Of a stretch of 10,175 bases of DNA, positions 3,063-5,554 are shown piece after piece. The stretch spans positions 1-10,175 of the forward strand of contig JBFRWD010000007.1 of NCBI GenBank assembly GCA_051439425.1, read 5' to 3'. Position numbers and translations under genes: made by a program. The stretch is from Synechococcus sp. GTDB lineage: Bacteria; Cyanobacteriota; Cyanobacteriia; Thermostichales; PCC-7336. The notes under the pieces were generated by a model, which saw only the letters and a list, made by a program, of their open reading frames with translations, had not been told where the DNA came from and ran no database searches. Numbering within the stretch: the first letter of the stretch is position 1; each line of letters begins with the position of its first letter.

Positions 3063-3101
3063 AAAACCGCAGCGAAAGTCAGGGGCTTCCGCTGCGGTTT
3101 T
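3063..3101. terminator. Bidirectional intrinsic terminator between convergent genes
   Basis: Perfect 12-bp inverted repeat AAAACCGCAGCG (3063-3074) / CGCTGCGGTTTT (3090-3101), with further imperfect internal pairing and A/T tracts on both sides. It lies between hup (+) and the 3124-3522 gene (-). Confidence 0.85.
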
Positions 3102-3123: not shown

Positions 3124-3522
3124 TTAGCGAATTCCACTCTCTGAGCTGGTGCTGCGGAGACCTTCTAGGCGCTCGGTGATTTTTTCACGGCGCATGCTAT
3201 TGAGTTCCTCAAGCTCCGCTTCAATCATCGCCATCATCTCGGCGGACATCTCGGCAATTGCCGGATCGTCCGACATCATGCCAACCATAGCAGTTTCGGC
3301 CATTGACATCAGCTCAGAGATCATGGTGTCAATGACTGCGATATCGAAATCAGCAGGATTGATACCATTCTCGGACGATGAACCTGCTGCCTCAAGCATA
3401 TTGAGGCGATCGATAATTCCCTCGGCTTCAGCGGATTGGATGCCGGCCAAACCCGTTACAGCCGCGGCTGTAACGGCTAACGCTCCAAAACCCATGCGGC
3501 GAACAAACATTTTGATGCTCAT
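3124..3522 (-). CDS. Small exported Met-rich protein resembling a single divergent DUF305/CopM-like repeat
   Basis: ATG at 3522 is 5 nt after a GAGGAG RBS. 132 aa, with a basic N-terminus, hydrophobic Ala-rich core and AEA|E signal-peptidase-like site. The mature part is acidic and helical, with 12 Met and no His or Cys. The DUF305 resemblance is by eye only. Confidence 0.7.
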   Translation of the reverse strand: MSIKMFVRRMGFGALAVTAAAVTGLAGIQSAEAEGIIDRLNMLEAAGSSSENGINPADFDIAVIDTMISELMSMAETAMVGMMSDDPAIAEMSAEMMAMIEAELEELNSMRREKITERLEGLRSTSSESGIR

Positions 3523-3619
3523 ATACACTCCTCAAGATATCGATGTGTCACTCTTGTGACTATTCAGATAGTACTAAACTAATACATATTATGATATACA
3601 AATCTCTCAATGCAAAGAA

Positions 3620-3634
3620 ATAACCTCAATCATA
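3620..3634. promoter_or_regulatory. Candidate Crp/Fnr-type operator (copy 3) upstream of the Met-rich gene
   Basis: ATAAC-CTCA-ATCAT-A, one mismatch to ATGAY-N4-RTCAT. A minus-strand -10-like TATCAT at 3596-3591 puts the site centre at about -42.5. Confidence 0.5.
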
Positions 3635-3703
3635 TCTTTTGATTGTGCTGTGAATATTAAAAAAATAAGTTGTTTTGTGTGCTTGGAGGCAGCCAAGCTC
3701 TTG

Positions 3704-4510
3704 TCAATGTGATGGATGAACTTGATTGTTTGCATGAGAAGTCTCCTCTCTCATAACGTATCCGATGTTGCGAACCGTGTGAATGAGAGGTTGGGCAGAA
3801 GCCCGTTTCAGCTTTCGCCGTAAACAGCTAATGTAAACCTCAATCAGGTTTGACTCTCCAATGAAGTCATATCCCCAGACATTTCTAATAATCTGATCGC
3901 GGGTCATGACTTGCTGTTTGTGTGACATTAAGCACTTCAGTAAATTGAATTCCTTCGCTGTTAGTTGCACCTCGCGATCGCTGCAGTAGACTTGCCGAGT
4001 TTTGCTGTTGAGGACAACATTTCCACACCTAAAAACGGGCTCATGTGAGTGAGGGCGATGTTTGATGTGAACCCGCACTCTTGCCAGTACTTCTTCCCAT
4101 CGATAGGGTTTTGCTACACAGCTGAGTGCTCCTGCATTGAGTCCCGTGATTCGTTGATATACACAGTCTTGATCGGTTAGCAATACGATTGGTAAGTCAG
4201 GTTTAGTTGCCGATATCTCGTGACATAGATCGACTCCACAGCTTTGTTCGGTTGTCCAATCAACAATGGCTAAGCTAGGGTGGAGTGAAAACAGTAATTT
4301 TATATCAACTAAACCACTAGAAATATACATCAACTGGTAGCCTGAAATTTGTAGTTTTTGGGCTAGTGATGGTTGTTGTCCAATCACAAGAATTAAATGC
4401 TCTTTATTTGAGCTTTCTTGATAGTGAAATCTATATATTGGATGATGCTTGGAAATCGTATATTGAGGTGTGATTATAGGGCTTTTGATTTTGAAATTGG
4501 ACTGCTGCAT
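3704..4510 (-). CDS. OmpR/PhoB-family response regulator with atypical receiver domain
   Basis: Clear winged-helix domain (LTAKEFNLL..LM....QVMTRDQI..NVWGYDFIGESNLIEVYI..LRRKL....LIHTVRNIGY). The receiver keeps IVDW, LLT and KPY but lacks the acidic pocket. The start codon is uncertain (about 38-aa N-terminal extension). Confidence 0.88.
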   Translation of the reverse strand: MQQSNFKIKSPIITPQYTISKHHPIYRFHYQESSNKEHLILVIGQQPSLAQKLQISGYQLMYISSGLVDIKLLFSLHPSLAIVDWTTEQSCGVDLCHEISATKPDLPIVLLTDQDCVYQRITGLNAGALSCVAKPYRWEEVLARVRVHIKHRPHSHEPVFRCGNVVLNSKTRQVYCSDREVQLTAKEFNLLKCLMSHKQQVMTRDQIIRNVWGYDFIGESNLIEVYISCLRRKLKRASAQPLIHTVRNIGYVMREETSHANNQVHPSH

Positions 4511-4760
4511 GAGATTCCGAGCATGACATTATAGTGCTTGAAGATCGAACAATTATTCATGGTGTGAAAAATAATGCTTCTTACGCAAGACTTTTTTTGG
4601 AAATAGATAATCTAGGCATGAGTTAATTGGAATGAATTGGCTAGCACTGATTTCCTGCGAAGGTAGTTAGTGCTTAAGTTATGGTATAGAGGGAATGAAG
4701 CCTCGGGTCTACTCTCGTCCGTGAATACCGAACAATATGCAGTTGATATTTTTAAATGGC

Positions 4761-4775
4761 TATGATTTCGGTCAT
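4761..4775. promoter_or_regulatory. Candidate Crp/Fnr-type operator (copy 2) overlapping the Crp/Fnr gene stop codon
   Basis: T-ATGAT-TTCG-GTCAT, 14/15 identical to 5475-5489. A minus-strand -10-like TATTGT at 4737-4732 faces the response regulator gene. Confidence 0.6.
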
Positions 4776-5389
4776 GTTTCCGTCTTCAGTAGTTGGATCG
4801 ATCGCTTGTCACGATTGATTTGTCCCTCTTTTTCGAGTTGGGATAATGTACGGTACAAAACTTCTGGCGCTAACCCCAATTCGTTGGCGATATCTTTTAG
4901 CGGGCGATCGATCTGAATGATTCGGCTTGTTGGATTGCTGACTAAGTGGAGATACCGCATAATTCGGCTACTCGCAGAGCGCGTCCCTCTGAGCTCTAAA
5001 TTATCTTTCAACCCAAAAACCAACTCGCTTAATCGTCGTGCAAATAGCATTAGAAGTCGCGGGTTATCTTGCACAATCGTGAGTAATCGCTCTTTGGGGT
5101 AAACCGTGACAGTTGTTCTCGTTTCTGCAATTCCTGTACAGCTGTAGCGTTCGATAAATACTGCTTCTGTGGCAACGCTTTCGCCTTCTCTTGAGACTTG
5201 CATCGTTACATCCGAGCCGTCAGTGGTGTAGCGAACCGCTTTGACTCGACCAGACTCAACGATATAGAAAGCGGCTGCACGCTCGCCTTGCCTAAACAAG
5301 ACTTCGTTAGATTCAAAGGTTTTGGTTGATGTGGATTCGCGCAACGTAGCTGGTAAGGAGTCTTGTGAGAAGTAGGTAGATAGATTCAT
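4772..5389 (-). CDS. Crp/Fnr family transcriptional regulator
   Basis: 205 aa. N-terminal cNMP-type beta-roll (LFRQGE....FYIVESGRVK...DG), dimerisation helix, and C-terminal HTH (LKDIANELGLAPEVLYRTLSQLEKEGQI). Confidence 0.92.
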   Translation of the reverse strand: MNLSTYFSQDSLPATLRESTSTKTFESNEVLFRQGERAAAFYIVESGRVKAVRYTTDGSDVTMQVSREGESVATEAVFIERYSCTGIAETRTTVTVYPKERLLTIVQDNPRLLMLFARRLSELVFGLKDNLELRGTRSASSRIMRYLHLVSNPTSRIIQIDRPLKDIANELGLAPEVLYRTLSQLEKEGQINRDKRSIQLLKTET

Positions 5390-5474
5390 TGCTGTAGCAG
5401 CGTCCTGGGATCGCGTTAAGCGATCGCCCTGATGTGTTGCTGCCAGTACACCAGGCTCACCTGAACCCTCTCTA

Positions 5475-5489
5475 TATGATTTCAGTCAT
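5475..5489. promoter_or_regulatory. Candidate Crp/Fnr-type operator (copy 1) upstream of the Crp/Fnr gene
   Basis: T-ATGAT-TTCA-GTCAT palindrome, overlapping a minus-strand -10-like TAGAAT (5493-5488). Confidence 0.6.
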
Positions 5490-5554
5490 TCTAATAAACA
5501 AACTTTGAGTGATACTTCAGGCACCTCTCAATGGATTCTCAGAGTTTGTGCGTA

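Follow-up and report, generated by a model that had tools for sequence, protein, structure and literature searches.

A putative regulatory module built on a Crp/Fnr-family protein and its palindromic operator in Synechococcus sp.

In the 10,175-nucleotide stretch of Synechococcus sp. DNA analysed here (the window, which is the entire contig C7 of G000, a cyanobacterial genome of 4.8 Mb), three minus-strand genes lie together: crp, for a 205-amino-acid regulator of the Crp/Fnr family (4772-5389); a gene for an OmpR-type response regulator of 268 amino acids (3704-4510); and a gene for a small, exported-type, methionine-rich protein of 132 amino acids (3124-3522), called the Met gene below. By sequence comparison, this block is a real regulatory module, and a response to toxic copper- or silver-type stress is its likely role. 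What carries this view is the palindrome ATGAY-N4-RTCAT, which, as far as related loci can tell, travels with the branch of regulators to which the window protein belongs, sits at the spacing of a class II activator, and precedes exported Met/His-rich proteins. The parts of the module are of known kinds; new, as far as the literature searched goes, are the branch, its box and its targets.

The regulator branch, its operator and its targets

The window protein belongs to the Crp/Fnr superfamily on the evidence of PF00027 (67 bits, cut-off 27.5) and PF13545 (34 bits, cut-off 27), and its recognition helix reads P175-E-V-L-Y179-R180, with Tyr179 aligned to Ser212 of FNR. Relatives of crp were found in 48 of 401 genomes of the class, and 58 aligned cyanobacterial Crp proteins, that of the window included, were split by recognition helix into 38 with E-x-x-S-R and 20 with E-x-x-Y-R. 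As a held-out set we used the best 80 of 558 metagenomic loci with the Tyr helix, in which the motif was sought within 350 nucleotides (nt) of crp. Exact ATGAY-N4-RTCAT was present at 65 of these 80 loci, while other spacers gave 0-2, and at 19 of 28 after collapse at 70% identity; the FNR box (TTGAY-N4-RTCAA) was found at none of the 80 within the same distance. At 63 of the held-out loci the site is found at the end of crp, on its stop codon, like one of the window sites. The cyanobacterial E-x-x-S-R loci carry exact TTGAY-N4-RTCAA in 19 of 38 cases, a hybrid in eight and the ATGAY box in none. A de novo motif search returned ATGA-N6-TCAT for the Tyr loci (8 of 16) and TTGA-N6-TCAA for the Ser loci (18 of 36), in a count that passed over some loci owing to a pattern limit and in which a GCGATCGC-type repeat also scored high. 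The proposal of the initial annotation that the palindrome is the operator of the Crp/Fnr protein is thus supported by comparison, given the 65 held-out relatives that carry it.

For activators of the CRP/FNR kind, a site centred at -41.5 is in the class II position. Counted from the first base of the site, TA occurs at offset 36, which corresponds to that centre, in 56 of 63 loci (5 or fewer at any other offset), and the fuller TAnnnT in 31 of the 63 (2 or fewer elsewhere). The Ser-type sites show the same spacing, with 15 of 26 at offset 36 and four at 37.

In 50 of the 68 metagenomic loci with at least 300 nt downstream, the next gene after crp encodes an exported Met/His-rich protein, and this target is present in two cyanobacterial loci as well (L097 and L249). 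The family is unrelated to the Met-rich protein of the window and gave no Pfam match at E 1e-12 and no match in the PDB; its motif reads GQDAFG...HLIDM...HHQxHH (L179:2081-2800, L186:2288-3061, L097:2639-3214, L249:825-1412). Multicopper oxidases flank L097 and L191. Three copies of crp are plasmid-borne, all with an exact site, and two of the three have metal-resistance genes around them: one belongs to a copper island that also encodes DUF305, a P-type ATPase and a multicopper oxidase, and the other adjoins genes for metal efflux and sensing. Under a fixed rule, exported Met-rich proteins were found less than 3 kb from 6 of 20 Tyr loci as against 1 of 38 Ser loci, the six being two sets of close kin. 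In the loci of family f16 (L065:5796-8893; also L070 and L073), crp is followed by a site, a 91-amino-acid exported Met-rich protein, an exact site and an MXKDX-type repeat protein, and then by cytochrome b561 and a molybdopterin oxidoreductase; a pair of extracytoplasmic function (ECF) sigma and anti-sigma factors is encoded divergently. These loci make up an MrpX/MsrPQ-like module.

The best relative of solved structure is DNR of Pseudomonas aeruginosa (PDB 3dkw, E 8e-17). With DNR and the wider FNR/FixK/DNR group the window protein shares the Crp/Fnr fold, the P-E-x-x-x-R helix, the TGA-N6-TCA core and class II spacing, and like DNR it is without the FNR cysteine cluster. Its branch departs from that group, however, in having Tyr for Ser212, ATGAT instead of TTGAT arms, a conserved pocket cysteine and an operator whose place is fixed, at the 3' end of the regulator gene itself, and from DNR in that its targets are exported Met/His-rich proteins and not denitrification genes. 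The E-x-x-S-R helix and TTGAT-N4-ATCAA box of the DNR class are replaced by a Tyr helix and by the absence of that box from all 80 relatives. Nor is the protein CRP, whose pocket residues Glu72 and Arg82 and whose Arg180 (of the Arg180-Glu181-Arg185 helix) have Thr74, Cys84 and Pro175 in their places (NF008732, 35 bits vs 266), or FNR, there being no N-terminal extension, one cysteine instead of the N-terminal cluster for 4Fe-4S, and Tyr179 for Ser212, or NtcA (TIGR03697, 30 bits vs 245). The FLP regulators of lactic acid bacteria are FNR-like, sense through thiols, use their own variant of the FNR box and are linked to metal-handling genes; they belong to another phylum and differ from the window regulator in box and cysteine arrangement. 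Cyanobacterial HcpR (slr0449/Avar17201; PMC1274295) is likewise a DNR-related regulator whose regulon is local and very small and whose palindrome is of the 5-4-5 form, but its box, as published, is TTGAC-N4-GTCAA and its target is norB or hcp, neither of which is in the window.

Cys84, the sole cysteine of the protein, occupies the place of the cAMP-binding Arg82 of CRP and has been retained by 78 of 79 relatives from metagenomes and by 48 of 58 from cyanobacteria. With regard to the recognition helix, Ser212 has been implicated in binding by FNR (PMC2908626), two other positions have been linked to bases (PMC1274295), and we hypothesise from the alignment that Tyr179 may be the cause of the preference for ATGAT arms. 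The E-x-x-Y-R branch, which is present also in alpha-proteobacteria, may correspond to group A, B, C or G of the uncharacterised Crp/Fnr proteins (PMC2908626, after Korner et al.) or to a minor group. No description of the branch, its box or its targets was found in a literature search that left outside Korner 2003, Matsui 2013, RegPrecise and the logos of PMC2908626, which may list the motif; in the parts available, neither a 2025 review of cyanobacterial copper handling (PMC12292863) nor PMC13707694 mentions Crp.

G000 also has a second crp paralogue (C41:14237-14812; L094:6029-6652), with the Ser helix PESLSR and TTGACGACCGTCAA after its stop, which precedes hydrolase, glyoxalase and PNPOx-like genes and has a YHS gene upstream, and two Crp circuits with different boxes may therefore operate in a single G000 cell. 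An FNR-type box after the stop is common in Ser-type relatives (L047, L049, L051-L053, L057, L060, L062, L066, L067, L074 and others). A protein of about 415 amino acids, of one cluster, then follows in those loci, a GAF-histidine kinase in the three scanned, and a Crp-to-kinase unit appears to recur among these relatives.

Sites, promoters and gene order in the genus

Site A (5476-5489, 86 nt before the crp ATG) and site B (4762-4775, overlapping the crp stop codon and 251 nt before the response-regulator ATG) are exact copies of ATGAY-N4-RTCAT, whereas site C (3620-3633, ATGATTGAGGTTAT on the gene strand, 97 nt before the likely Met-gene ATG) has one mismatch, and the claim that the same operator precedes all three genes is accurate for A and B and only approximate for C. 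A fourth one-mismatch match lies at 3224, inside the Met gene. By itself, the number of matches in the window does not exceed chance expectation (four with one mismatch or fewer are obtained in 18 of 200 shuffles), and the motif is not enriched across the genome, where there are 21 exact copies vs 6-22 for other spacers between 0 and 10. Sites A and B share a 15-mer, TATGATTTCRGTCAT, found nowhere else in the genome, are its sole pair of exact sites less than 3 kb apart, and rank among the best 6 and 8, respectively, of the 4.8 million positions scored with a matrix from eight sites of other genera. We compared the window with three other genomes of the genus, G001, G002 and G003, the last of which has its own copy of the block (L014). 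The motif arms agree with L014 at 10 of 10 positions in A, 10 of 10 in B and 9 of 10 in C, within flanks that are identical at 124 of 151 (82%), 142 of 251 (57%) and 102 of 161 positions (63%), respectively. A site with a score of 9-14 is present 82-110 nt upstream of the Met-gene orthologue in all four genomes. As for a wider regulon in G000, none of nine other high-scoring intergenic matches checked has TAnnnT at offset 36-37. Weak sites were seen about 550 nt upstream of a YHS gene on C2 and before the canonical OmpR gene on C50.

Candidate -10 elements, on the minus strand like the genes, lie at class II spacing from two of the sites. Downstream of site B it is CATATT after TG (4734-4739), with TG-CAnnnT at offset 36 in three of three genomes (the window, G003 and G002), and downstream of site C it is TATCAT (3591-3596), with TAnnnT at offset 36 or 37 in all four orthologous regions of the genus. 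No class II -10 of either form (TAnnnT or TG-CAnnnT) follows site A. A candidate crp promoter instead occupies 5491-5520 of the minus strand (CTGAAG at 5515-5520, 18 nt, TATTAG at 5491-5496), as judged from an alignment by eye, and ends one base before site A, its CTGA and TA being kept in all four genomes, including G002, where site A is lost. Site A therefore likely overlaps the predicted crp start of transcription, and its position one base after a -10 that persists even where the site does not suggests that crp represses itself. With the family operator at all three genes, regulation by Crp of its own gene and of both downstream genes, as originally suggested, is likely.

The three-gene block is intact in two of the four genus genomes, G000 and G003, the latter having the genes in the same order and a full set of sites. 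In G001 a YHS gene, crp and the Met gene are present along with sites A and C, while the response regulator and site B are both missing. The YHS-domain (seleno)protein encoded directly upstream of the G001 crp (L015:3903-4538) has repeated NPCAA units, and its closest match in G000 is on C2. In G002, crp and site B precede the N-terminal half of the response regulator, which is joined in frame to a family 2 glycosyltransferase (L041:6699-8270), apparently by rearrangement; the Met gene, with a site of its own, lies some 165 kb away from crp. No Met-gene homologue was found in the 58 crp neighbourhoods examined outside the genus. Records P0007 and P0041 place crp and the Met gene together in a cultured strain of Synechococcus. 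The block is consequently not the conserved three-gene system that it was first taken for, and a linear cascade does not agree with a Met gene that has its own site and with a G001 that does without the response regulator. Because the response regulator is missing between crp and the Met gene in G001, and because the distant Met gene of G002 keeps its own site, the Met gene is better regarded as a direct Crp target, and nothing shows the response regulator acting on it. The layout would be a single-input fan-out, not a chain, and the conserved unit would appear to be crp, the operator and an exported Met/His-rich protein. The exact three-gene block is a local arrangement of lesser importance.

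The three genes are co-oriented, as annotated, and are bordered by ictB and a convergent HU gene. The Met gene more likely starts at the ATG at 3522, preceded by a GAGGAG ribosome site, than at the end of its listed open reading frame (3124-3528). Between the HU and Met genes, a hairpin at 3063-3101 with a 16-bp stem (94% complementary) and A and T tracts is likely a bidirectional intrinsic terminator, in agreement with the strong terminator that had been placed there, even though a terminator scanner gave no entry for it. The response regulator and its flanks had also been described as AT-rich; this is so for the response regulator (GC 0.42) and partly for crp (0.47), and not for the Met gene (0.52), seven neighbours having 0.50-0.56. 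At the contig end (10073-10175) there is a near-consensus promoter, TTGACA-17-TATGTT, followed by sequence that we presume may be an rRNA operon leader.

The pseudo-receiver and the Met-rich protein

In the response regulator the acidic pair is replaced (IGQQ; DD to GQ) and the Asp, Thr and Lys are kept. A pseudo-receiver, or atypical response regulator, is one without at least one of DD, D, T and K (PMC12632262), and by this definition the absence of the acidic pair makes the window protein a pseudo-receiver. No kinase was found among the ten window proteins scanned, and the idea of kinase-free control fits a receiver that, to judge from its missing acidic pair, may be kinase-independent. NblR of Synechococcus elongatus (PMC12632262) is also an OmpR-type protein with a defective receiver, and its model NF045914 is the best NCBIfam match, but the score of 193.5 bits is below the cut-off of 300, the tree places the window protein on a separate branch, and G045 encodes a true NblR (391 bits) in addition to the copy linked to its crp (252 bits). 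CopR is rejected as well (TIGR01387, 130 bits vs 279). The window and L014 response regulators differ by 81 synonymous vs 63 replacement codon differences. Five genomes, from families f11 and f18, have a related gene that is placed tail-to-tail with a Tyr-type crp and preceded by a site, exact in three of them and with one mismatch in two, and the seven crp-linked response regulators, from three families, form one clade (99/93) among 35 OmpR proteins, adjoining a canonical cyanobacterial regulator on the tree. We consider it fairly probable that this protein is a phosphorylation-independent second regulator that extends the response.

The small protein has a signal-peptide-like N-terminus, from whose hydrophobicity export is predicted, contains 12% Met, and has no His or Cys in its mature part. 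It belongs to no Pfam or NCBIfam family, with no match to PF03713 (DUF305) at E 0.1, and its relatives are few (13 at E 0.001, 18 in another search). A profile comparison with a CopM half gave an hhalign probability of 93.6% (E 2.1e-7, 62 columns), the CopM rows having themselves been found with profile A1, and the suspected link to DUF305 copper proteins thus survives in a remote form, that of a putative half-DUF305/CopM-like hairpin. The predicted model is a helical hairpin with a pLDDT (predicted local distance difference test) above 90 for approximately residues 61-120, and its structure matches generic hairpins; a Cu(I)-bound dimeric periplasmic protein (7vw0/7vw1, E ~1) was a weak, non-significant fold match, and a protein atlas returned one unnamed match at 0.76, which is a lead only. 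No DUF305 gene was found in any of the five genomes of the family. An RLxxLxSTSxESG-like repeat (RLxxLRSTSPESG-like) stands at both ends of the mature protein and is better conserved than the Met residues.

Cu(I) is bound by CopM, with Met the probable ligand (PMC4335983), and in the copMRS operon of Synechocystis (PMC4335983) an exported Met-rich DUF305-like protein similarly lies next to an OmpR-type regulator. The window, however, has one DUF305-like half, no MxxHH, no kinase and a pseudo-receiver, and its Met gene is likely under Crp, not CopR. Identity with copMRS is rejected given that there is no window kinase, HH motif or CopR. Other exported half-DUF305-like proteins of 118-122 amino acids, with about 10% Met and one or no His, were seen at L133:460-6799, L129:1461-6819 and L131:6557-6916. 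That of L133 is divergent from a regulator-kinase pair and lies beside an MsrPQ-like pair, a redoxin, a DsbD-like gene and a Met-repeat lipoprotein.

Mechanism, alternatives and meaning

In the mechanism that we propose, a Crp/Fnr dimer would bind the three palindromes, repress its own gene at site A, and activate the pseudo-receiver gene from site B and the exported Met-rich gene from site C, the trigger being a thiol-reactive metal, Cu(I) or Ag(I) for instance, that reacts with the conserved cysteine of the pocket; the Met-rich hairpin would act as a CopM-like envelope sink. Direct binding and activation by Crp are highly probable, and the balance tips slightly toward self-repression. A thiol-reactive metal ranks first as the signal, ahead of oxidants and then of nitric oxide (NO), yet it comes close to probable without reaching it, and a metal signal together with a CopM-like sink is more tentative still. 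Taken as a whole, the mechanism is our best explanation, and we would put it a little short of probable.

Several of our observations pull the other way. His83 and Asp85, found in 56 and 71 of the 79 metagenomic relatives, are Ser and Thr in this genus, so this lineage may sense something else. The MxxHH motif that binds copper, and whose HH defines DUF305 (PMC4335983, PMC11836926), is absent from the small protein, which has MxxEL at the aligned place, and its Met content is not conserved in the wider family, falling to 2-7% in P0042-P0045 and P0062-P0064. No metal-resistance gene turned up near the block in the scan of window proteins; most metagenomic neighbourhoods are unrelated to metals, the third plasmid copy is beside aromatic catabolism genes, and other cyanobacterial copies precede a GAF kinase, a pirin, a short-chain dehydrogenase or a luciferase-like protein. 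Only 6 of the 20 cyanobacterial E-x-x-Y-R loci have the exact ATGAY box beside crp (one has the TTGAY box), and the Ser/Tyr label needs one or two changes on an 80-row tree that sampled 24 of 79 metagenomic rows, so that the match of residue to base does not amount to many independent cases. The response-regulator clade has long branches. Site C, finally, is weak by itself, as 461 genome positions score equally well with the same matrix.

This last point, together with the mismatch in site C and the fact that the Met gene shares its neighbours (phosphoesterase and HU) with G002, where crp is far off, could mean that sites A and B are real, site C a chance match and the Met gene an unrelated neighbour. 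The recurrence of the site upstream of the Met gene in all four genomes, at the distances and scores given above and each time with TAnnnT at 36-37, makes this very improbable. Only slightly less so is a true cascade or feed-forward loop, in which Crp would drive the pseudo-receiver and the latter would itself be needed for Met-gene expression. The gene order and co-orientation in G000 and G003 agree with such a loop, and the response-regulator remnant after crp in G002 suggests that the pair is ancestral in the genus; but crp, site C and the Met gene persist in G001 in the absence of the response regulator, a separate class II -10 accompanies site C in all four genomes, and the f11 and f18 loci link the response regulator to crp with no Met gene in the 7-13 kb examined.

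Alternatively, the same wiring could serve another signal. A methionine or thiol oxidant of the HOCl/HOBr type is an unlikely candidate, and yet the one that most deserves attention after a metal; Cys84 would be an oxidation switch and the Met-rich protein a sacrificial scavenger like MrpX of Azospira. In Azospira suillum, the SigF/NrsF-MrpX-YedYZ system for hypochlorite defence (PMC4436054) is a small regulon with an exported Met-rich protein, and in the f16 genomes (G065, G122 and G043) the E-x-x-Y-R crp precedes Met-rich proteins, the MXKDX protein among them, and an MsrPQ-like pair, in an order that matches the MrpX/YedY layout (PMC4436054). The 122-amino-acid half-DUF305-like protein of L133 is beside the same kind of pair, and Ser-type relatives adjoin glutathione S-transferase, glyoxalase, thioredoxin and thioredoxin-reductase-like genes. 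The Azospira regulator is, however, an ECF sigma factor, and the f16 loci are close kin whose ECF sigma/anti-sigma pair could be the true regulator. The window protein, at 12% Met vs about 20% in MrpX (PMC4436054), does not belong to the MrpX-YedYZ group, nor was any MsrP-like gene found in G000 (96% complete), which has no match to PF00174; all three sister genomes have two or three such molybdopterin oxidoreductases over the cut-off, the difference being due to loss or to an assembly gap. The commonest target of the branch, moreover, is rich in His as well as Met, which suits metal binding. A DNR/HcpR-like haem sensor of NO or low oxygen is improbable: DNR is the best solved relative, 3 of 38 homologues are named dissimilatory nitrate respiration regulator at source, and the operator differs from the DNR box at the outer base only (PMC1274295), but no nor, nir, hcp or globin gene is among the annotated neighbours, part of which were covered, and the targets are exported Met/His-rich proteins. 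We continue, for these reasons, to place a thiol-reactive metal first.

More broadly, and with considerable doubt, we envisage a widespread Crp/Fnr branch in which an Arg-to-Cys change would sense Cu(I)/Ag(I)-type or thiol-oxidising stress and a Ser-to-Tyr change would read ATGAT-N4-ATCAT, insulated from FNR-type circuits; time and again, this branch would have taken unrelated exported Met-rich proteins under its control and, in cyanobacteria, also an OmpR copy that works without a kinase and draws on a regulon already in place. For a Crp/Fnr branch that spans cyanobacteria to soil alpha-proteobacteria, the operator, promoter class and type of target can now be named, and the comparison suggests that, besides the two positions already described (PMC1274295), a third position of the recognition helix bears on specificity (FNR Ser212 to Tyr, TTGAT to ATGAT). 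The unannotated exported Met/His-rich family has gained a lead to its function, and the response regulator exemplifies a pseudo-receiver whose control likely lies in its own transcription and not in phosphorylation, a question raised in PMC12632262. If the pocket cysteine does indeed sense metal, this would be a new input for the Crp/Fnr superfamily.

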